DNA of 64,000 nucleotides, taken from Rhynchobatus australiae. Its lineage: Eukaryota. Positions 1 to 43,374 of this stretch are shown here, piece after piece. The notes below the pieces were generated by a model. That model made no database searches. It saw only the letters and a program-made list of their open reading frames with translations, and was not told the origin of the DNA. The position numbers and the translations under genes are program-made. The stretch covers positions 48,999,036 to 49,063,035 of the forward strand of contig JAUZTB010000076.1 of assembly GCA_034780895.1 (NCBI GenBank), read 5' to 3'. Positions within the stretch are counted from its first letter, which is position 1; the number at the start of each line of letters is the position of its first letter.

Positions 1-47
1 AGTCACTGATGGTCGTGCCGTGCTGGTGAGTGTGGGTGATGAGTGAT
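1..47 (-). CDS. Mucin repeat exon, truncated by window edge (NHSSPTLTSTARPSVT...)
   Basis: Acceptor ttcttccaacag ends at 48; homologous to the other units. Confidence 0.75.
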
Positions 48-3000
48 CTGTTGGAAGAACAGAAGTGTGAGGAGCAATGCCATCCCAGAAAAGACAGCAG
101 CCACAGTCCAGGCTTTGTAAAGAGTTGGGAAGGAGTGGATATCACCACTCCCTTTGCGATCGATTTTACTGAGGTTGTCACCAGGGTTTCTGAAGATACT
201 GTGAGTATGATCTCTTTAACCAAAAATCAGATATGACAATACATTGCAGCCATTTGCTTTGGAAGCATTCTGGTTTATATACAAAAAGCCGAGATGTTTC
301 TTTCGACCTACTTGAAACAGTAGTGAATGAAGTAGTCACTGATGGTGGAGCCGTGCTGGTGAGTGTGAGTGATGAGTGATCTGTTGGAAGAACAGAAGTG
401 TGAGGAACAATGCCACACACAAAAAGACAAAAGCCACAGCCCAGACTTTGCTATGAAGAGGGCCAGAGTGCATTACACTATTCCCTTTACAAGTGAGTTT
501 ACTGAGCTTGGGGCACCGAGGTTTCTGAAGATGGATTGAATTTGATGTCTTTAACTGAGAATCGGATTTTACAATACATTGCAGCCTTTTGCTTTGTAAA
601 CAATTTGATTTAGAAACAGAAAGCTGGGGCACTTCTGTGGACCTACTTGAAGCATTGGTGAATGAAGTAGTCGCTGATGGTGGAGCCATGCTGGTGAGTG
701 AGAGTGATGAGTGACCTGTTGGAAGAAAAAGTGTGAGGATTAATGTCACCGCAGAAAAGACAGAAGCCACAGTCCAGGCTTTGCAATGATGTGGGCAGGA
801 GTGGATATCGTCACTCCCTTTGCAATCAATTTTACTGAGGTAGCCATCAAGGTTTCTGAAGACAGAATGAATTTGATCTCTTTAACCGAAAATCAGATAC
901 GACAATACACTGCAGCCATTTGCTTTGTAACTGTTTCGATTTACAAGCAAAAAGCCGAGATGTCTATGTGGACCTACTTGAATCATTGGTGAAGGAAGGA
1001 GTCACTGATGGTGGAGCCGTGCTGGTGAGTGTGAGTGATGAGTGATCTGTTGGAAGAACAATAGTGTGAGGAACAATGCCACATATTGAAAGATGGAAAC
1101 CACAGCCTAGGCTGCGATATAAAGTGAGCAGGAGTGGATTACACCATTCCATTTCCAAGTCATTTTATGGAGCTTGTCACCAAGTTATGTAAACATAGAC
1201 TGAATTTGATCTTTTTAACTGAAAATCAGTTAAAACAATATATTTTGGAAACATTTTGATTTACAAAAAGCTGAGTTATTTCTGTGGACGTACTTGAAGT
1301 TGCAGTGAATGAAGTAGTCACTGATGGTGGAGCCGTGCTGGTGAGTGTGGGTGATGAGGGGTCTGTTGGAAGAACAGAAGTGTGAGGAACAATTCCACCC
1401 CAGAAAAAAATGTAGCCACAGTCCAGGCTTTACAATGAAGTGGGCAGGAGAGGATACCACCACTCCCTTTGCAATCGATTTTACAGAGCTTGTCACCAAA
1501 GTGTCCGAAGATATATTGAATTTGATCTCTTTATCCGAAATTCTGCTATGAAGATACATTTCAGCCATTTGTTTGGGAAACATTTTGATTTACAAACAAA
1601 AAGCTGAGGTATTTCTGTGGACCTACTTGAAGTTGCAGTGAATGAACTAGTCACTGATGGTGGAGCCGTGCTGGTGAGTGTGGGTGAGGAGTGATCTGTT
1701 GGAAGAACAGAAGTGTGAGGAACAATGCCACACACAAAAAGACAAAAGCCACAGACCAGACTTTCCTATGAAGAGGGCGATAGTGCGTTACACTATTCCC
1801 TTTACAACTGAGCTTACTGAGCTTGGTACCAAGATTTCTGATGATGGATTGAATTTGATGTCTGTAAACTGAGAATCAGATTTTACAATAGATTGCAGCC
1901 TTTTGCTTTGTAAACAATTTGATTTAAAAACAGAAAGCTGGGGCACTTCTGTGGACCTACTTGAAGCATTGGTGAATGAAGTAGTCGCTGATGGTGGAGC
2001 CGTGCTGGTGAGTGTGAGTGATGAGTGATCTGTTGGAAGAACAGGAGTGTGAGGAATGATGCCACCCCAGAAAAGACAGAAGCCACAGTCCAGGCTTTGT
2101 AATGAAGTGGGCAGGAGTGGATATCACCATTCCATTTGCAATCAATTTTACTGAAGTTGTCACCAAGGTTTCAGAAGATATATTGAATTTGATCTCATTA
2201 ACCAAAAATCAGTTTAGACAATACACTGCAGCCATTTTTTGAAACATCTTGGTTTAAAAACAAGATTCTGGGGTTTTTCTTTGAACCTACTTGAATTTGC
2301 AGTGAATGAAGTAGTCACTGATGGTGGAGCCGTGCTGGTGTATGTAAGTGATGAGGGGTCTGTTGGAAGAACAGAAGTGTGAGGAACAATTCCACCCCAG
2401 AAAAAAAAGTAGCCACAGTCCAGGCTTTGCAATGAAGTGGGCAGGAGAGGATACCACCACTCCCTTTGCAATCGATTTTACTGAGCTTGTCACCAAGGTT
2501 TCTGAAGATAGGTTGAATTTGATCTCTTTAACCAAAAATCAGATATGACAATATATTGCAGCCATTTGCTTTGGAAACATTCTGGTTTATAAATGAAAAG
2601 CCGAGATGTTTCTTTGGACCTACTTGAAGTTGTAATGAATGAAGTAGTCACTGAGGGTGGAGCCGTGCTGGTGAGTGTGGGTGATGAGGGATCTGTAGAA
2701 AGAACAGAAGTGTGAGGTACAATGTCACACACAAGAAGACAGATGCCAAAGTCTTGGCTTTGCTATGNNNNNNNNNNNNNNNNNNNNNNNNNNNNNNNNN
2801 NNNNNNNNNNNNNNNNNNNNNNNNNNNNNNNNNNNNNNNNNNNNNNNNNNNNNNNNNNNNNNNNNNNATGAAAGACAGAAACCACAGCCAAGGCTTTGCC
2901 GTGAACAGGGCAGGAGTGGATTCCACCATTCCCTTTTGAAGTGATTTTAAGGAGTTCCTCATCAAGTTATGTAAACATTGATAGAATTTGATCTCTTTAA

Positions 3001-6000
3001 CCAAAAATCAGTTAAGACAATACATTGCAGCCATTTGTCTTGTAACCATTTTGATTTACAAACAAAAAGCTTGGGTATTTGTGTGGACCAAATTGAAGTT
3101 GTAGTAAGTGAAGGAGTCACTGATGATGGAGCCGTGCTGGTGAGTGTGGGTGATGAGTGATCTGTTGGAAGGACAGAAGTGTGAGGAACAATGCCACACA
3201 TGGAAGACAGAAGCCACAGCTCAGGCTTTGATATAAAGTGGGCAGGAGTGGGTTACACCACTTCATTTGCAAGTAATTTTTCTGAGCTCGTCACCCACAT
3301 TTATGAAGGTTGATTGTATTTGATGTCTTTAAACTAAAATCAGATAGAACAATACATTGCACCCTTTTGCGTTGCAACAATTTTCAGATACAAATAAAAT
3401 ACTGGGGTTTTTCTGTGAACCCACTTGAAGCATTGGTGAATGAAGTAGTCACTGATGGTGGAGCCGTGCTGGTGAGTGTGAGTGATGAGGGATCTGTTGG
3501 AAGAACAGAAGTGTGAGGATCAATGCCACACACAAAAAGACAGAAGCCACAGTTCTGGCTTTGCAATGAAGTGGGCAGGAGAGGATATCATCACTCCCTT
3601 TGCAATCGATTTTACTGAGCTTGTCACCAAGGATTCCGAAGATAGTTTGAATTTGATCTCTTTATCCAAAATTCAGATATGACAATACATTGCAGCCAGT
3701 TGTTTTGGAAACATTCTGATGTACAAACAAAGAGCCGAAATTCTCTGTGGACCTACTTGACGCATTGGTGAATGAAGGAATCACTGATGGTGGAACCGTG
3801 CTGGAGAGTGTGGGTGTTGTGTGATCTGTTGGAAGAACAGAAGTGTGAGGAACAATGCCACACACAAAATGACAGAATGCACAGCCCAGGATTTGCAATA
3901 AAGTGGGCAGGAATCAATAACACTTTTCCCGTTGCAAGTGATTTTAAGGATCTTGTCACCAAGGTTTCCGCAGATAGATTGAATTTGATCTCTTTAACCG
4001 AAAATCAGTTAATACAATACATTGCAGCCATTTGTTTTGTAACCATTTTGATTTACAAACAAAAAGCCAGGGTATTTATGTGGACCTACTTGAAGTTGCA
4101 GTGAATGAAGTAGTCACTGATGGTGGAGCCGCGCTGGTGAGTGTGGGTGATGAGGAATCTGTTGGAAGAACAGAAGTGTGAGGAACAATGGCACACCTGG
4201 AAAGACGGAAACCACAGCCCTCGCTTTGCTGTGAAGAGGGCAGGAGTGGATTACACCATTCCTGTTACATGTGATTTTTTGTATCTTGTCACCTAGTCAT
4301 GTAAGCATAGATTGAATTTGATCACTTTACCTGAAAATAGGTTAAGTCAATACATTGCAGCCACTTGTTATGGAAACAATGTGATTTAAACACAAAAAGC
4401 TGTGGTATTTCTGTGGACCTACTTGAAGCTCTGGTGAAGGAAGTAGACATTGATGGTGGTGCTGTGCTGGTGAGTGTGAGCGATGGGTGATCTGTTGGAA
4501 GAACAGAAATGTTGATAAAAATACCACACATGAAAAAACAGAAGCCACATTCCAATGAACGGGGCAAGAGTGGATATCGCAACTCCTTTTGCAAGTGATT
4601 TTACTGAGCTCGTCACCAAGGTTTCCAAAGATAGCTGAATTTTATCTCTTTATTCAAAGTTATGCTGCAACCATCCATTGCAGACATTTGGTTTTGGAAA
4701 CATTTTGATTTACAAACAAAAAGCCAGAATGTATCTGTGGACATACTTGAAGTTGTAGTGAATGAAGTAGTCACTGATGGCGGAGCCGTGCTGGTGAGTG
4801 TGAGTGATGAGTGATCTGCTGGAAGAACAGAAGTGTGAGGAACAATGCCACGCATGGAAGGCAGAAGACACAGCCCAGGACTTCGCTATGAAGAGGGCAG
4901 GAGAGGGTTTCACTATTCCCTTTACAAGTGAGTTTTCTGAGCTTGGCACCAAGGTTTCTGAAGATGGATTGAATTTGATGTCTTTAACCGAAAATCAGAT
5001 ATTACAATGCATTGCAGCCATTTGCTTTGTAAACAATTTTATTTTAAAACAGAAAGCTGGGGCACTTCTGTGGACCTACTTGAAGCATTGGTGAATGAAG
5101 CAGTCACTGATGGTGGAGCCGTGCTGGTGAGTGTGAGTGATGAGTGATCTGTTGGAAGAACAGGAGTGTTGGTAAAATACCACACACGAAAAGACGGAAA
5201 CCACAGCCTAGCCTGCGATATAAAGTGGGCAGGTGTTGATTACACCATTCCATTTCCAAGTCATTTTACAGAGCTTGTCACCAAGTTATGTAAACATAGA
5301 TTGAATTTGATCTCTTTAACTGAAAATCAGTTAAGATAATATATTGTGGAAACATTATGATTTACAAACAAAAAGCTGAGTTTTTCTGTGGACCTACTTG
5401 AAGCATTGGTGAATGAAGTAGTCGCTGATGGTGGAGCCGTGCTGTTGTGTGTGAGTGATGAGTGACCTGTTGGAAGAACAGAAGTGTGAGGAACAATGCC
5501 ACCCCAGAAAAGACACAAGCCACAGTCCAGGCTTTGCAATGAAGTGGGCAGGATTGGATATCACCACTCCCTTTGCAATCGATTTTACTGAGCTTGTCAC
5601 CAAGGTTTCTGAAGATAGATTGATTTGATATTTTTATCCAAAATTCAGATATGACAATACTCTGCAGTCATTTGTTTTGGAAACATTCTGATTTACAAAC
5701 AAAAAGCCAAAATTCTCTGTGGATCTACTTGAAGCATTGGTGAGTGAAGTAGTCACTGATGGTGGAGCCGTGTCGGTCAGTGTGGGTGTTGAGTGATCTG
5801 TTGGAAGAACAGAAGTGTGAGGAACAATGCCACACATGGAAAGTCAGAAACCACAGCCCAGGATATGCAACAAAGTGGGCAGGAGTCAATAACACGATTC
5901 CCTTTGCAAGTGATTTTAAGGATCTTGTCACCAAAGTTTCCGAAGATAGATTGAATTTGATCTCTTTATCCAAAATTCTGATACGAGAAAACATTTCAGC

Positions 6001-9000
6001 CATTTTTTTGGAAACATTCTAATGTAAAAACAAAAAGCTGGCATACTTCTATGGACCTACTTGAAGCATTGGTGAATGAAGTCATCTGTGATGGTGGAGC
6101 CGTGCTGGTGAGTGTGAGTAATGAGTGATCTGTTGGAAGAACAGAAGTGTGAGGAACAATGCCACACATTGAAAGATGGAAACCACAGAATAGGTTTTGA
6201 TATAAAGTGTGTAGGAGTGGATTACACCATTCCCTTTGGAGGTAATTTTACAGAGCTTGTCACCAACATTTATGAAGGTAGATTGAATTTAATGTTTTTA
6301 ACCTAAAATCAGATATGAATATGCATTGCAGCCTTTCGTTTTGTAACCATTATGATTTACATACAAGATGCTGGGGTTTTTCCGTGGACCTACTTGAAGC
6401 ATTGGTGAATGAAGTAGTCACTGATGATGGAGCCGTGCTGGTGAGTGTGAGTGATGAGTGATCTGTGGAAGAACAGAAGTGTGAGGATTAATGCCACACC
6501 TGAACAGAAAAAAACTACAACCTACACTTTGCTAGAAAGTGGGAAGGAGGTATCTACACCGTTCTCCTCCATAAAGGGTTGTCAACACACTTTAACTGAC
6601 CTTATCAGCACAGACCAAACTGCCTGGAAATGATTTTAATTTTTATCTTTAAAGGAAAATTAGACACAGGCAATGCATTGTTGCCACTCCTGAAGGATTT
6701 TAAATGAAAATGAAAAGCGAGTGCATCTCTGCGGACATACAGGACCCTGTTCAGAATGAAGTCGTCACTGATGCTGGAGTGTGATTGAAGAGTGGAAGAA
6801 CTAAATTGTGAGTGGTGCATGCCACATCGCATCGGAGAGAAACCACAGTCTGGATATTAGACTGAATCTTCAGATACATTGTTGTTTCCTAAAAAAATTG
6901 GGGTTTGGATGACTGTCCTTTTTCAATGTGATTAGCCCAATTCGCATAAATCTTTATTTGAAATTAGGCAAGATATTACTATTTTTGCAACTTAAAACCC
7001 AGCTCTTTTTGGAGCCGTTCATGTTAGATTTCCATCAAAGCAACACTGACTATGAAAACAAGGAAATTCAACCTGAATTGCTGCTGCCTCTGTGAAATCA
7101 ACGTGACCACAGAGAAACGGCAGGGGAATGGGACTATTTAAGCAGTTCAGACAAGTAGCTATGGCTCCTCAACTGGATGAAATGAGTTTCTTGGAGCTGT
7201 ATCACTTTTTATGATTCTACCATCATTCAATATGAATCAGATAATATCAACACATTATGGGAATGTGATTTGTAGCCATTCTGACTTTATTCAAAAGGCT
7301 GGTTATCTCCAATGGACATACTTGAACCTGTTGCTTTTGAAGTCGCCACTGTTTGAGCCGTGCTGGTGGTTGTGAGTGAAGATTGATCTGTTGGAATAAC
7401 AGAAGTGTGAGGATTAATGCATAGCACATCTGAATATATAGGGACCACAGGTGAGGCTTTGCTGTAAATTCAGAGAGAATGGCTTAAAACATTCACTTTG
7501 AGAAAGAGAATCATCGTCTGATTCTTCCGAAGATTGTTTGACTTTCATGTCTTGAAAGGAAAATCAGATACAGTCAATACATTGCTAGCATGTATTTTGC
7601 AAATCCTTTGACTGAAAAACAAAATGCATAGATATTTCAGTGGGCATGTTTGAACCTTTTGTGAATGATGCAGTCCCTGATGGTAGAGCTGTGCTGGTGG
7701 GTGCAGGTGGTATGTTATCTAGTGGAAGAACAAAAGTGTGATGCATGCCATACCTCAATAGGTGGAAACCAGAGCCAAGGATGTGCTAGAAATTATTAAT
7801 GGCTAACACCATTCTCCTNNNNNNNNNNNNNNNNNNNNNNNNNNNNNNNNNNNNNNNNNNNNNNNNNNNNNNNNNNNNNNNNNNNNNNNNNNNNNNNNNN
7901 NNNNNNNNNNNNNNNNNNACTCCTTACAGGCAGCGGTGGGAATCGAACCCGGGTCACTGGCGCTGTAATAGCGCCGTGCTAACCACTAAGCTATGTGCTG
8001 TGCCTTACAAACCAATCTCTATTTGGCATTAGAAAGTGTATTTATTTCTCATATTAATTATTTTTAACTTGTATCCTATCATATGAAGGAATCCTCCATT
8101 TTATATTTCCATCAAAGAAACATTGATAATGAAAATGGAGAAGTTCAGCCTGAATTGCAACCGTCTGTGCTCAGAATGAGGGTGACCATGGGGAAAGAGT
8201 AGAAGAATGGGATATTTTTAGGCAATTTGAACAAACAGCTGCTGATTCACAATGGGATGAAATTATTTTCTCAGTGCTTTATCATTCTCTACGATGTTAC
8301 CATCATTCAGAGAAAATGAGATCCAGGCAATACACTGTGGGAATGTGGTTATGGTTTATATCCATTTTGACTTTAAATCAAAAAGTTGTACATCATTATG
8401 GATGTACTTGAACCTGTTGTGAATGAACTAGTCACTGATGGTGGAGCCATGCTGGTGGATGTGAGTGATGAGTGATCTTTTGGGAAGAACAAACGTGTGA
8501 GAAGTAATGCCATACCTGACAGGACAGAAGCCACAGCTCAGACTTCACGATAAACTAGGAAGGAAAGGATGACACCATTCTCCTTGAAAATGGTTGCCCA
8601 CAGACTTTAAGTGAGCTTGTCAATTAGATTCAATGCAAGTGTGAGCATGGCAAACTGAAGGGAAGCTCAACAATCCGACTGAAGAGGCCCCCACAGTCAG
8701 CAGAGTAAGGATTAAGCACAATTAATGTAAATCACGTTAAGGTCATTGCATGGTTTATCAATAGAGTTTGCATCAAGCACAGAAATATTTCAAACAGTAT
8801 AAAGCCCAAAACATGTAAAAGTGAGTGATCTCAATTTATATATCTACAGATGCGAGAGCAGTAAATGCTCAGCCATGCTGTTCAGCAGAATCCAGAGGTC
8901 ACTTGCATTCAGAACGCATATTGCTTCCTATGAGTAAACCTATACAAAAGGTGACAATTCTTCAAATGGCGCACAGGCAAAATGAAAATGACATTGAACT

Positions 9001-12000
9001 TTCTGCCTCAAACCATTTCATTCCATTTGTATCAAGACAAATAGAACATTTTGTTCACATTTTGAAGAGAGATCCAAGCAGGATCACTTAAATTTGAAAT
9101 CAAACTTTAAAGTAGTATTTAAACTTTAGGTACATTTATTGTTGCTTGAAGAATTGGAGTTTGGATTACCATTCCTCTAACAACGTGGTCAATTCAATTC
9201 ATAATTTCAAACAGGTATCTATTTCACATTGGATAATATATTTTTTTACAACTTAAAACCCGTCTTGTCATGGAATCCTTCATTTTGGATTTCTGTCAAA
9301 GAAGCACAGACAATAAAAATGAGGAAATTTGGCTAGAGTTGCAGCTGCATGGGGAAAGCAGAGAAGTGGGATTATTTAAGGAGTTAGAATAACAGTTGCA
9401 ATGAAGCAATGGGATGAAATGTATTTCTCAGTGCAGTTTCTCATTCTCTTTGATTCTGCCATTGTTCAGTGAAAGTCATGTACTGCCTGGCATTTTGTAT
9501 TTTATATCGAATTTCTAGTGTTTTTCTTTTGGGTTATAACTTATTAATATTTTACTTACTTCTGAATGAACAGGGCTTAAGTTTTACAGAGATGTACTAA
9601 CAATAGGGGCAATTTGATTCATGTCTGAAGGTGATTCCGAAGTATGTCGACCAAGCAGAGATTGTAATCCCACAATTGTTGGGGATCCGACTATCTTTAC
9701 TGCATCCTATGGATTTCAGAACTTAATGGAGTATTTGTGGAAGCCAGGAGCAGTTGGTCTGGTTCAATGACTTAGCTATATAGCTCAGCAGAATTCAGGA
9801 GGTGAGATCATCCTTGTTCATAAAGTATACCGTATGAAAAATGTGCCTCATACAGGAAAACATCTATGGAAGTCAGAACATCACACCTGGTCCTCCAGGC
9901 AGGATTAAGACAAAATCGATCTATTTTGCCCAATCACTTCCATTCCACTTGCTCTGGCATGTGAAGTCTTATTTAATGATGCATGAGTGCTGGGGATGCT
10001 AGTAGTCACTGGCTCAGTAGACGTGCTGGTGAAATCTGCTGTTGGATGAAACTGAAGGACTTTACGGTTGGAACCAAAAGTGCATTAAGTAAAATAACTT
10101 GTCCTATCACACTCAAAAACTTCCTGTCACACTCAAAAACTTTTTACCCTTGTTAAAAAGGATGAATATTCCCTCTTGACGATATTCCAATCCAAATCAT
10201 TGAGCCTTAGTTTGTTCACAAGTGTGCTGTTTGATATATTATTGTCCATATGATCACTTGTGCGATTGCAAGAGAAACAAATCCTTCCAATTTATGTTTT
10301 GCTGTCTCAGGGAACTTCCATTCCCAGTGGAAAAAAATGATCAAATGTAATTGCTTCAAGACAAAATTCACCAATACATTGACGGAATTTCGGTGAATTT
10401 TGTCCAGCAGAGAAACAATGATATTTGACGCTGAAATTGTTACTTGATTTTGCAAGAAGGCATGGAAGTTTTAAAGCTATTGAGTTCACTGCAGTGTTCA
10501 CTCAAAACCTCCAAAAGAAATACATACAATTTTGATTTAAAATCTTGCCTGTTTCCTTGGTTTTATCATGAGAATTAACAACATCCAGGAACTTTCATCT
10601 ATGGTTCTGATGATGTTGTTCTTTTAAGAAAATGATTTTGTTTTTGCTTGTCATTTATTTCATTATGAAAATGGTGTAACACTTGCTGCTGTATGGTTCC
10701 AATTGATTTCCTTTCATGTGTTATCTTGAGTGAAATGAGCCAATATAAAGGCATATATTTGGCTTTGCTCAACAATAATGTTCACAGATTGCCAAGAGAG
10801 ATCACTCAATAGCTATGACAAATAGGTATAGTGATTGATAACTTCTCTACTGGGACAGGCTAATAATGGTGGTCCCACTGCTATATCATCAGCTGAAAGT
10901 TCCCAAACAGAACCTGGGGCCCTGTACACTTCAGTACTGCTCCAGGCAATGCAATAACTCAGTAACTTTAGGTCAGCTTCATTGAAATCTCCATAGCCAC
11001 TGCTGGTACTGCATCCTTTTGATAATTTCTTGGTTCATTATTCCTTTAAAAATAGGGTAAGATTGGGCACTGCAAGTATTCTCCAGGTAGAAAGATGTTA
11101 CCATCCACATTGTCTCAGGAACAAATATCAGGTACCAATGATGCTCACACTGGATTTTGTAACAAATGTATGGATTTCCAACATATTTTAAGACCTTGTT
11201 CTTTAGCAGCAAGAAGAAAAAACATCATCTTAGTTTCTCCTTGAGAATGCTACTAATGCTGTGTTATGACATTTAAAAGTAGAAGATGGACCATCCTTTT
11301 AAGATGTGTGCATCGATCTAATGAGGAAAGTCTGGGAATATAACTCAATGGTAAATCTGTGCTGAGTTTGAAGGGTACATTCTAGCTCAGTGCAAGTGGG
11401 GATTGCCTCATCAGCTGCCAGACAAGAAGGAGCTAAAAATCTATCCCCATATTTTCTATCCAGGCACATCCTGCTGGCAAGCAGTAGTAGTAATACAACA
11501 CAAGATGGTTAATGCTGTTTGATGCCTGAATTTGTATTTCTTATTTTGTGGTCAGCAGAATTTCTACTTGAAGTGTCAGTGGAAAAAAAAATGGATAGAT
11601 TGAAATTTTGGAAAAAATATTAACTGAGGTTTGGAACTATCAGGAATGCAAATTGCATTCCAACATCAATGTAATCCTACTGTTACAATACAGCAGTGAT
11701 GCTAATGCACAACTTACCTTGATAATTATTACTATTTGTTAATATCCAACTTATTTACGGTGGCTAGGGGCAAGAGGCAGCTGAATCATGACGTGTTGCT
11801 TTCATGGGTGGGTGGGTGACAGTCATAAGATTGTCAAGAGGTTTATGGTTAAAAAAATCCTTAAAAGAACACCAAATCCCCATATTAGACAATAGGCTTA
11901 ATCTATGGGAAGCTGGCGTGTGAAAAAAAAATAAAAGGGACTTTCTTAACTTCATGGATCCAACAGTCATTTACTCACATTGCAATTGGCTTTGGCAAAC

Positions 12001-12506
12001 TGTCAATCAAAGAACTGGAAAAACATCCAAAAGTTTAACTGAGCAGTTTAACATTGTTCATCTTATTGTTTAACGAGCACTTTTGCAGAAGGCCAAAGGA
12101 GCTTTTTTTGGTTTTGATACAATTCCCAGTATTAATTATTTATGCAGATTGTTCGTCAATGAATTTGTTATTTGGCAACAGACCTGTATCTTTGAAATAA
12201 TTAAAGCATATTTTTTAACTCAGATCAGAAAAGTTGTTATGAAACACATAATNNNNNNNNNNNNNNNNNNNNNNNNNNNNNNNNNNNNNNNNNNNNNNNN
12301 NNNNNNNNNNNNNNNNNNNNNNNNNNNNNNNNNNNNNNNNNNNNNNNNNNNNATAATGACAGCATTAAACAAGCTGGGACTTCAACTTTCTGTTAGACAA
12401 AGCATACAATACCCATGCACTGCATACAGAGTAACTGTATCTGATTTGAGTGAAAGGTATTTACTTGGGTACTTACTCGCATTTGTAGGAGATGAAGTGG
12501 ATGAGC
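1..12506 (-). CDS. Multi-exon N-terminal region of a mucin-stalk (S/T/P-rich) glycoprotein gene, partial and continuing beyond position 1; CD45/PTPRC-like layout (candidate only)
   Basis: More than 20 short exons with pyrimidine-tract/AG acceptors and GT donors on the minus strand. All are multiples of 3 and open in phase 1, encoding S/T/P-rich peptides with N-glycosylation sequons. Confidence 0.8.
312..380 (-). CDS. 69-nt mucin repeat exon NHSSLTLTSTAPPSVTTSFTTVS
   Basis: ttcttccaacag|exon|gtaggt, phase 1-1. Confidence 0.82.
647..715 (-). CDS. 69-nt mucin repeat exon SHSSLSLTSMAPPSATTSFTNAS
   Basis: caacag|exon|gtaggt. Confidence 0.8.
978..1046 (-). CDS. 69-nt mucin repeat exon NHSSLTLTSTAPPSVTPSFTNDS
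   Basis: caacag|exon|gtaggt. Confidence 0.82.
1294..1362 (-). CDS. 69-nt mucin repeat exon NPSSPTLTSTAPPSVTTSFTATS
   Basis: caacag|exon|gtacgt (variant donor). Confidence 0.78.
1627..1695 (-). CDS. 69-nt mucin repeat exon NHSSPTLTSTAPPSVTSSFTATS
   Basis: caacag|exon|gtaggt. Confidence 0.82.
1961..2029 (-). CDS. 69-nt mucin repeat exon NHSSLTLTSTAPPSATTSFTNAS
   Basis: caacag|exon|gtaggt. Confidence 0.82.
2291..2359 (-). CDS. 69-nt mucin repeat exon NPSSLTYTSTAPPSVTTSFTANS
   Basis: caacag|exon|gtaggt. Confidence 0.8.
2624..2692 (-). CDS. 69-nt mucin repeat exon NPSSPTLTSTAPPSVTTSFITTS
   Basis: ttctacag|exon|gtaggt. Confidence 0.82.
3093..3161 (-). pseudogene. Pseudo-exon copy of the mucin repeat (donor GT mutated to TT)
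   Basis: Plus strand reads gaccaaattgaag instead of gacctacttgaag; acceptor and frame are intact. Confidence 0.75.
3425..3493 (-). CDS. 69-nt mucin repeat exon NPSSLTLTSTAPPSVTTSFTNAS
   Basis: caacag|exon|gtgggt (variant donor). Confidence 0.72.
3757..3825 (-). CDS. 69-nt mucin repeat exon NHTTPTLSSTVPPSVIPSFTNAS
   Basis: caacag|exon|gtaggt. Confidence 0.8.
4090..4158 (-). CDS. 69-nt mucin repeat exon NSSSPTLTSAAPPSVTTSFTATS
   Basis: caacag|exon|gtaggt. Confidence 0.82.
4423..4491 (-). CDS. 69-nt mucin repeat exon NHPSLTLTSTAPPSMSTSFTRAS
   Basis: caacag|exon|gtaggt; putative branch motif ctcac altered. Confidence 0.72.
4747..4815 (-). CDS. 69-nt mucin repeat exon NHSSLTLTSTAPPSVTTSFTTTS
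   Basis: ttccagcag (NAGNAG)|exon|gtatgt. Confidence 0.8.
5080..5148 (-). CDS. 69-nt mucin repeat exon NHSSLTLTSTAPPSVTASFTNAS
   Basis: caacag|exon|gtaggt; putative branch motif altered. Confidence 0.75.
5398..5466 (-). CDS. 69-nt mucin repeat exon SHSSLTHNSTAPPSATTSFTNAS
   Basis: caacag|exon|gtaggt. Confidence 0.8.
5729..5797 (-). CDS. 69-nt mucin repeat exon NHSTPTLTDTAPPSVTTSLTNAS
   Basis: caacag|exon|gtagat (weak donor). Confidence 0.65.
6061..6129 (-). CDS. 69-nt mucin repeat exon NHSLLTLTSTAPPSQMTSFTNAS
   Basis: caacag|exon|gtaggt. Confidence 0.8.
6394..6462 (-). CDS. 69-nt mucin repeat exon NHSSLTLTSTAPSSVTTSFTNAS
   Basis: ttccacag|exon|gtaggt. Confidence 0.82.
6741..6800 (-). pseudogene. 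Degenerate mucin exon copy (homologous acceptor lost, in-frame TGA)
   Basis: Reads ...CCAGCATCAGTGACGACTTCATTCTGA...|gtatgt; the homologous caacag acceptor is missing. Confidence 0.65.
7322..7387 (-). CDS. Diverged 66-nt mucin exon NQSSLTTTSTAQTVATSKATGS
   Basis: ttccaacag|exon|gtatgt; exactly one codon shorter, frame preserved. Confidence 0.75.
7650..7718 (-). pseudogene. Diverged mucin exon copy NNIPPAPTSTALPSGTASFTKGS with dead donor (GT>AC)
   Basis: ttccactag acceptor; exon end TTCAA is followed by acatgc. Confidence 0.6.
7919..8004 (-). mobile_element. tRNA-derived V-SINE 5' head
   Basis: Reverse complement has A/B-box-like tagcttagtggttagc...gggttcgattccc followed by ctgtaaggagt, as in the full copy at 47025. 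Confidence 0.85.
8408..8476 (-). CDS. Diverged 69-nt mucin exon NHSSLTSTSMAPPSVTSSFTTGS (weak splice sites)
   Basis: cccaaaag|exon|gtacat; open frame. Confidence 0.5.
9949..10038 (-). CDS. Candidate 87/90-nt mucin exon (T)DFTSTSTEPVTTSIPSTHASLNKTSHARA, distant paralog of the repeat exon
   Basis: Acceptor ttcatccaacagcag (NAGNAG). Shares CACCAGCACG and CAGTGACTACT with the repeat exons. The donor is uncertain (A|gtggaa keeps phase 1). Confidence 0.6.
12477..12506 (-). CDS. 30-nt phase-1 micro-exon xSSTSSPTNA
   Basis: ttttctttcag|GCTCATCCACTTCATCTCCTACAAATGCGA|gtaagt; strong sites, S/T-rich, length divisible by 3. Confidence 0.8.
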
Positions 12507-41897: not shown

Positions 41898-41965
41898 AGC
41901 TCATCAATATGTGGGTGGTTAGCTCATCAATATGTGGGTGGTTAGCTCATCAATAAGAGGGTGGT
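41898..41965. repeat. 23-bp minisatellite, 3 copies
   Basis: agctcatcaatatgtgggtggtt twice plus a diverged third copy. Confidence 0.9.
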
Positions 41966-42819: not shown

Positions 42820-43374
42820 NNNNNNNNNNNNNNNNNNNNNNNNNNNNNNNNNNNNNNNNNNNNNNNNNNNNNNNNNNNNNNNNNNNNNNNNNNNNNNNNN
42901 NNNNNNNNNNNNNNNNNNNAGGCTAAGTATTTACACCAACTACTGTTTCTATAATCAGAATTCCAGTATCCGTAGTTTTTGATTTTCACATCTTCAAAGT
43001 ACACTGCGTTCATAAAGCCATCATCACGACAGACCCCTCCAACCTATCTGCATATGTGCACATTAAAATGGACGCCTGGTGGTACAATGTACTTCCTTCA
43101 CTGTTGCTACAATGATACCATGTTGTTTGGTGGTCTGTGAGGTGCAGCATCTGCATCCAGCTAAGCAGTGCTTGGAGTGCCCTGCACCATCCCTCTCACT
43201 CCCTTTCTCCACCCTCTGCCCTTGTGCATGGGATATGTTAATCACCCACTGAAAATTTAACCATGTTCTTACTGGATCTACAGGGATATGATTAACTTAG
43301 CTGATGGCAATATGGTACACGAGTTTTGTGATGGTTCACCCTTCAGACCAAGGCTTCATCATCATCCTAAACTT

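Follow-up and report, generated by a model that had tools for sequence, protein, structure and literature searches.

Cassette-exon arrays lie in the ectodomains of surface receptors such as CD44 and Dscam; the variable exons of CD44 are not tandem copies of one unit, and the exons of Dscam are mutually exclusive, through pairing of docking and selector elements, and encode folded immunoglobulin parts. In classical mucins with a variable number of tandem repeats, the repeats are held within one large exon. The CD45 gene (PTPRC) of channel catfish reportedly has thirteen alternatively spliced exons, to go by the title of a 2004 report by Kountikov et al. (PMID 15236932). Mammalian CD45 has three variable exons (PMC3384337), the combinatorial use of its RA, RB and RC exons sets the length of the mucin segment at 41 to 202 amino acids (PMC6170634, PMC3384337), and salmon CD45 is described with three variable exons as well (PMC6362898). 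Here we analyse a stretch of 64,000 nucleotides from Rhynchobatus australiae (the window; C76:48999036-49063035) that contains part of the CD45 gene. We consider it likely, with a probability of roughly 0.7, that an exon-plus-intron unit of CD45 has been tandemly amplified in this stretch and that its copies serve as alternatively spliced cassettes, which would lengthen a predicted glycosylated stalk.

Like exons 4-6 (RA, RB and RC) of mammalian CD45, these exons belong to the same gene, occupy the same position and are rich in Ser, Thr and Pro; where mammals have 3 such exons, this locus has no fewer than 26 intact cassettes, of which about 20 arose recently as tandem copies of one 332-bp unit. 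The catfish gene resembles this locus in its expanded set of alternatively spliced exons, although its count, taken from a title only, is about half the number here. The RefSeq PTPRC models of sharks and rays share the inclusion or skipping of an HSSLT..STAP repeat, but they are protein models with lineage-specific units and only about 2-13 repeat starts in the longest model listed per species (a rough pattern count; genomic copy number may be higher). In these models many repeats are included together, unlike the exons of Dscam, and RefSeq models of bass have tandem repeats of their own in the CD45 variable region. Expanded CD45 exons in fish are therefore an established concept; what is new is the scale (about twice the largest count that we found), the satellite-like array, the birth and decay of its copies, and the predicted N-glycosylation sites at exon junctions. 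Among the literature matches listed, from which subscription journals are mostly missing, none deals with an array of CD45 exons in sharks or rays. The locus catches the birth, homogenisation and decay of an exon array in progress, even if the principle itself is not new.

Gene identity and exon anatomy

Gene identity, exon anatomy, the purging of indels and stop codons, and the decay of some copies are established here. In the original prediction CD45 figured as an analogy, but the locus is CD45 itself, in its variable N-terminal region, as judged from phosphatase-domain matches and from a collinear sawfish CD45. (All positions are those of the window, and negative positions lie to its left.) Phosphatase-domain exons are located 57-77 kb left of the window, on the strand of the array; the exon of the first phosphatase domain (D1) has CD45 as its best match in the PDB (1ygr, E 1.3e-24; next match 1.3e-16) and ray PTPRC proteins as its closest named homologues. 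The sawfish protein (P0122), on which an fn3 domain was found, maps collinearly from -6.6 to -78.5 kb, through older cassettes, Cys-rich and FN3 regions, a transmembrane segment, D1 and D2; the Cys-rich/FN3 ectodomain and the one transmembrane segment follow the mucin region at -20.9 to -46.5 kb. CD45 is marked by an intact catalytic motif in D1 and an acidic insert in D2: the former is present as VVHC and SAGVGRTG on consecutive exons (-58.8 and -60.0 kb), and an acidic stretch lies at -66.6 kb. Over the cytoplasmic region, identity is at least 87% to sawfish CD45 (645/742, intron overhang included), 71-75% to other rays and 65% to bamboo shark, and all 12 segments checked are without a stop. 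As in the variable exons of CD45, the frame-symmetric, S/T/P-rich exons are placed between a short constant exon and the Cys-rich domain. A phase 1-1 exon of 30 nt (12477-12506, minus strand) is positioned like the short constant exon that comes after the signal peptide in the CD45 of relatives, and a 66-nt constant exon is found at -18712..-18647. An Rfam scan for synteny markers over the 100 kb left of the window returned no matches.

Tandem Repeats Finder called two blocks, 1-2767 (period 333) and 2868-6549 (period 332), each with 77-78% matches, on either side of a 100-N gap (2768-2867, no strand). Together they form a tight array on the minus strand (1-6549) with a period of 332-333 bp, whose units are 74-95% identical (mean 81%) and consist, read on that strand, of a pyrimidine tract, AG, 69 nt and a donor. 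The proposal that an apparent satellite is an exon-plus-intron unit thus stands, but its figure of at least 24 copies has to be divided: only 20 belong to the tight array, and the 25 homologous units in 1-10050 include decayed copies, the remainder being older and spaced. Nineteen array exons are complete, all of them 69 nt long and phase 1-1 (312-6462, minus strand): 312-380, 647-715, 978-1046, 1294-1362, 1627-1695, 1961-2029, 2291-2359, 2624-2692, 3093-3161, 3425-3493, 3757-3825, 4090-4158, 4423-4491, 4747-4815, 5080-5148, 5398-5466, 5729-5797, 6061-6129 and 6394-6462. A twentieth (1-47, minus strand) keeps its acceptor and is truncated by a 4,367-N gap that adjoins the left edge of the window.

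The phase-1 frame is free of stops in 19/19 exons, as had been claimed; in the remaining sense frames 15/19 and 2/19 exons contain stops, and in the antisense frames 19/19, 19/19 and 14/19. The encoded peptides are 55% Ser+Thr and 12% Pro, and all 19 exons are distinct in both DNA and peptide, with no indels among them. Unlike those of classical mucins, the repeats in 1-6549 do not run on within one open exon: no open reading frame there exceeds 181 amino acids, and each repeat is an exon of its own. The 18 gap-free introns are all 247-266 nt long and carry 18 distinct indel events, in agreement with the length variation first noticed.

Older copies lie to the right of the array, all on the minus strand. 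Two are intact: a 66-nt cassette at 7322-7387, which has indeed lost 3 nt and has its counterpart in a variable block of the sawfish RefSeq isoforms; and a 69-nt cassette at 8408-8476, with AAG / GTACAT borders. The copy at 6741-6809 has lost its AG acceptor and contains an in-frame TGA, and that at 7650-7718 has a broken donor (AC). Within the array, AG acceptors are kept in 20/20 exons and GT donors in 18/19; the exception is the array exon at 3093-3161, whose donor has mutated to TTTGGT and which is likely dead at this site.

A non-coding satellite or an assembly expansion might also produce such a pattern, and the assembly is fragmented, with gaps inside and beside the array. This explanation is already largely refuted, and we give it almost no weight: no pair of units is more than 95% identical, coding and splice constraint are evident within the unit, annotated CD45 isoforms from many elasmobranchs match its peptide, and the DNA of other organisms holds array sequence. 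The last point comes from four read-derived contig sets, which are DNA, judging by their intronic cover, and are silent on expression; X1, which matches the window exactly in unique stretches and may be its source, was not counted as independent. Contigs of organism B (flank about 97-98% identical) and organism E (about 93%) carry array-type pieces, those of E with back-jumps between units. Because both hold such sequence, the array likely predates the splits from these organisms; and because, in addition, 19/19 exons are distinct, it is, on this sequence evidence, not an assembly artefact. Summed contig depth in array versus flank (11.5 vs 5.1 in X1, 10.9 vs 5.9 in X2) is not a copy number and was not used as evidence.

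Exon use in relatives and the predicted stalk

Evidence on splicing comes from RefSeq PTPRC models of ten sharks and rays (Pristis, Rhinoraja, Narcine, Hemitrygon, Mobula, Hypanus, Chiloscyllium, Mustelus, Pristiophorus and Carcharodon), i.e., automated X-isoforms. They form ten clusters of 11-35 members, and nearly all of these are annotated as PTPRC isoforms (at most 15 listed per cluster). In 8/10 species the last 1000 amino acids are common to all listed isoforms, which differ by 113-271 amino acids at the N-terminus, and the length spread is 110-271 amino acids across the ten; the isoforms differ by whole copies of the HSSLT..STAP repeat, present or skipped. Among 15 of the 20 sawfish isoforms, 7/8 blocks are variable and the shortest isoform skips all 7. 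Four variable blocks and the constant block match exons flanking the array here, and a fifth variable block matches the 66-nt exon, with order kept; the tight array itself lies between counterparts of variable blocks, at the position in which the sawfish models have two exons of array-type sequence.

Because splice sites are present, indels and stops are selected against, and homologous exons are included or skipped in the models of relatives, the proposal of mucin cassettes that can be skipped in frame appears well supported. If instead every intact exon were always included, the gene would encode one very long CD45. The splice sites, near-identical and consensus-like in most copies, would suit such a constitutive stalk, which we nonetheless think very improbable, given that the models of relatives leave out counterparts of the flanking exons, the shortest form being R0-like.

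Different lineages have amplified different CD45 units: two-exon units in Narcine and Hemitrygon, single units in Mustelus, and a 35-residue unit in bass (P0078, P0007, P0032, P0080). Comparison of these sequences suggests that the CD45 variable region expanded repeatedly and independently across lineages.

Under the model of amplified, alternatively spliced cassettes, one ancestral 69-nt exon and its intron would have multiplied by unequal crossing-over; phase 1-1 symmetry would make each gain, loss or skip of a unit neutral to the frame, and copies that lose a splice site would then decay. Each included exon would lengthen a predicted unfolded, O- and N-glycosylated stalk by about 23 residues, and inclusion may be regulated by cell type or activation state, by analogy with mammals. 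Ectodomain height, the exclusion of the phosphatase from contacts and lectin binding might all be affected. Full inclusion of the 26 intact cassettes would add 589 residues. In PMC6170634, the range extends from 41 residues (22 nm) to a 202-residue mucin segment (40 nm) in the longest isoform, CD45RABC, and effective height increases less than length. Extrapolated from this 22-40 nm range, by arithmetic and not by measurement, each exon would contribute about 2.6 nm and full inclusion would reach about 85-90 nm.

Joining of the cassettes could also create glycosylation sites. The junction codon (the last base of one exon and the first two of the next) encodes Asn in 323/361 pairings; a predicted N-x-S/T site is gained at the 5' junction in 12/19 array exons, and 10/19 have an internal site. 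Pairs of listed isoforms from 7/10 relatives are distinguished at such junctions solely by Thr-Asp versus Asn (or Thr-Gly versus Ser), a tandem-acceptor pattern that, to go by the sequence, would switch an N-glycosylation site on or off. Tandem CAGCAG acceptors were observed at 4747-4815, at 9949-10035 and at the -13918 cassette, and the upstream AG has been lost in all array exons except 4747-4815.

The kinetic-segregation model gives the size of the CD45 ectodomain a central role, and mammals span only 22-40 nm (PMC6170634); a series of 26 or more near-equal steps of 23 residues would offer a natural test of the influence of stalk length and glycan load on receptor triggering, and the array exons would supply isoform markers for leukocyte subsets of cartilaginous fish. 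A bolder version of the model, which we advance only tentatively, is that the gene draws on 26 to about 40 cassettes in many combinations, letting leukocyte subsets choose any length between an R0-like stub and stalks of 600-900 residues (about 90-120 nm, extrapolated), with junction N-glycosylation sites written by splicing and with the repeatedly re-amplified exon behaving, among sharks and rays, like a gene family that evolves by birth and death within a single gene. This would be the most tunable CD45 known.

Constraint, possible conversion and decay

Comparison of rates between exons and introns, as originally suggested, revealed a divergence among array copies of 0.13 in exons, 0.21 in introns and 0.02 in the last intron columns. 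No exon indels were observed, versus about 5 expected at the intron rate (P ~0.007), and no stop-bearing copies among 19, versus 6.5 expected at intron divergence (simulation treating copies as independent, P 0.0006).

Several results weigh against our interpretation. Counting distinct variants at the exons' own mutation rate, the deficit of stops has a P of only 0.064, and the lean toward S/T/P residues falls short of significance (P 0.37). Conservation extends to synonymous sites (pS 0.106, CI 0.06-0.16), and pN/pS is 1.33 (CI 0.78-2.4); because of these two values, the homogeneity of the exons could in part reflect gene conversion, or RNA-level constraint and exonic splicing elements, rather than selection on the protein. 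Five copies have decayed. The 15 sawfish models listed (of 20) never include more than 5/7 cassettes, and long chains of near-identical exons in automated RefSeq models may have been stitched together from short reads. Alternative splicing of the array exons, though likely, is read from the models of relatives. Finally, no signal-peptide exon was found in the window, within 200 kb on its right, across 364 kb of gapped sequence or in a genome search with one query, all with many gaps. A weak KYLA-like match at 42953 was rejected as this exon: the sequence runs on as non-coding across a gap.

Some of these observations would be expected if the expansion were merely tolerated and near-neutral, i.e., if the region were skipped in most mRNAs, few copies were used, and conversion kept the exons alike. 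A pN/pS that is not below 1, a pS lower than intron divergence, several decayed copies and a stop deficit that is weak under a conservative null all agree with this scenario, as does an off-locus copy on contig C64 whose exon is nearly identical despite 83% identity over its full length. Such an expansion seems unlikely to us: it does not readily account for the lack of indels in 19 exons beside 18 intron events, for the retention of 18/19 donors and 20/20 acceptors despite 21% intron divergence, or for the persistence of array-type sequence in a species about 7% diverged in the flank.

The same pN/pS, at or above 1, together with the fact that 19/19 peptides differ, raises the question of whether the array provides diversity and not length, with one or a few of its exons per mRNA varying peptide and glycans against pathogen CD45 ligands or mucin proteases. 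In mammals the CD45 ectodomain shows positive selection, which bears more on its constant exons than on its variable ones (PMC4379584), and two block pairs never occur together in the 15 sawfish models listed. But the pN/pS interval includes 1, for which reason positive selection on the array exons was rejected, and up to about 13 repeats are strung together in single proteins of the shark and ray models; we consider this explanation improbable. Returning to cassettes that lengthen a stalk, because indels and stops are purged while pN/pS is 1.33, it appears from the sequence that exon length, frame and splice signals are preserved and that residue identity is loose.

CA-rich silencers of CD45 variable exons are bound by hnRNP L/LL (PMC3384337). 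CA-rich hnRNP L motifs occur at 0.079 per nt in the exons versus 0.017 in the introns, but this enrichment is not significant once the dependence among copies is allowed for: a single ancestral exon against a codon-shuffle null gave P 0.42. A simple higher-order repeat was rejected; the intron tree has a few supported clades of non-adjacent units, but 8/15 inner branches are open.

Gaps, copy number and outlying copies

The intact cassettes in place number 26 (589 codons): 18 in the array, 2 older ones in the window and 6 left of the 4,367-N gap. The six are at -4863..-4795, -6736..-6668, -11952..-11884, -9328..-9275 (54 nt), -13918..-13862 (57 nt) and -15590..-15519 (72 nt), the last with an apparent GC donor, as judged from its match to a sawfish block. 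Left out of the count are two frame-shifting relics, -7077..-7023 (55 nt) and -12251..-12154 (98 nt), and a doubtful 87-nt relic or cassette at 9949-10035 (minus strand), with a tandem CAGCAG acceptor and a weak donor. A 1.9-kb stretch that includes this doubtful exon (8692-10636) is missing from one contig of organism E.

The original prediction had the array continuing past the edge of the window. Homologous copies do continue beyond the 4,367-N gap, but these are older and spaced, and the tight array is not found there; it may continue inside the gap, which has room for about 13 units if entirely array. The two flanks of the 100-N gap (2768-2867) come from different units, so that one or more further units are hidden in it. 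An unplaced contig of 986 bp (C39449) has 3 further intact 69-nt units, whose identity to assembled sequence does not exceed 82%, and by its sequence likely belongs in a gap of the array. The copies seen come to about 30, with a ceiling of about 40. Elsewhere in the assembly, 100-N gaps can be overlaps rather than missing sequence, because the same letters are repeated on both flanks of those at 42820-42919 and at L009:3650-3749.

The off-locus copy is a counterpart of the -4863 unit and lies at L020:4834-5734 (C64, ~54.883 Mb), 83% identical over 946 bp; the exon together with the 30 nt after it differs at a single position, and the end of the copy matches 7031-7154 of the window at 92%. The copy is on a 2.7-kb contig between N gaps and could be either a fragment of the CD45 locus that was wrongly placed or a duplicate changed by conversion.

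Within the variable region, 7919-7995 is a short, high-copy interspersed repeat of tRNA-like appearance, with very high depth in the four DNA contig sets. Farther right, a 23-bp unit is repeated three times at 41898-41965, with 95% identity.

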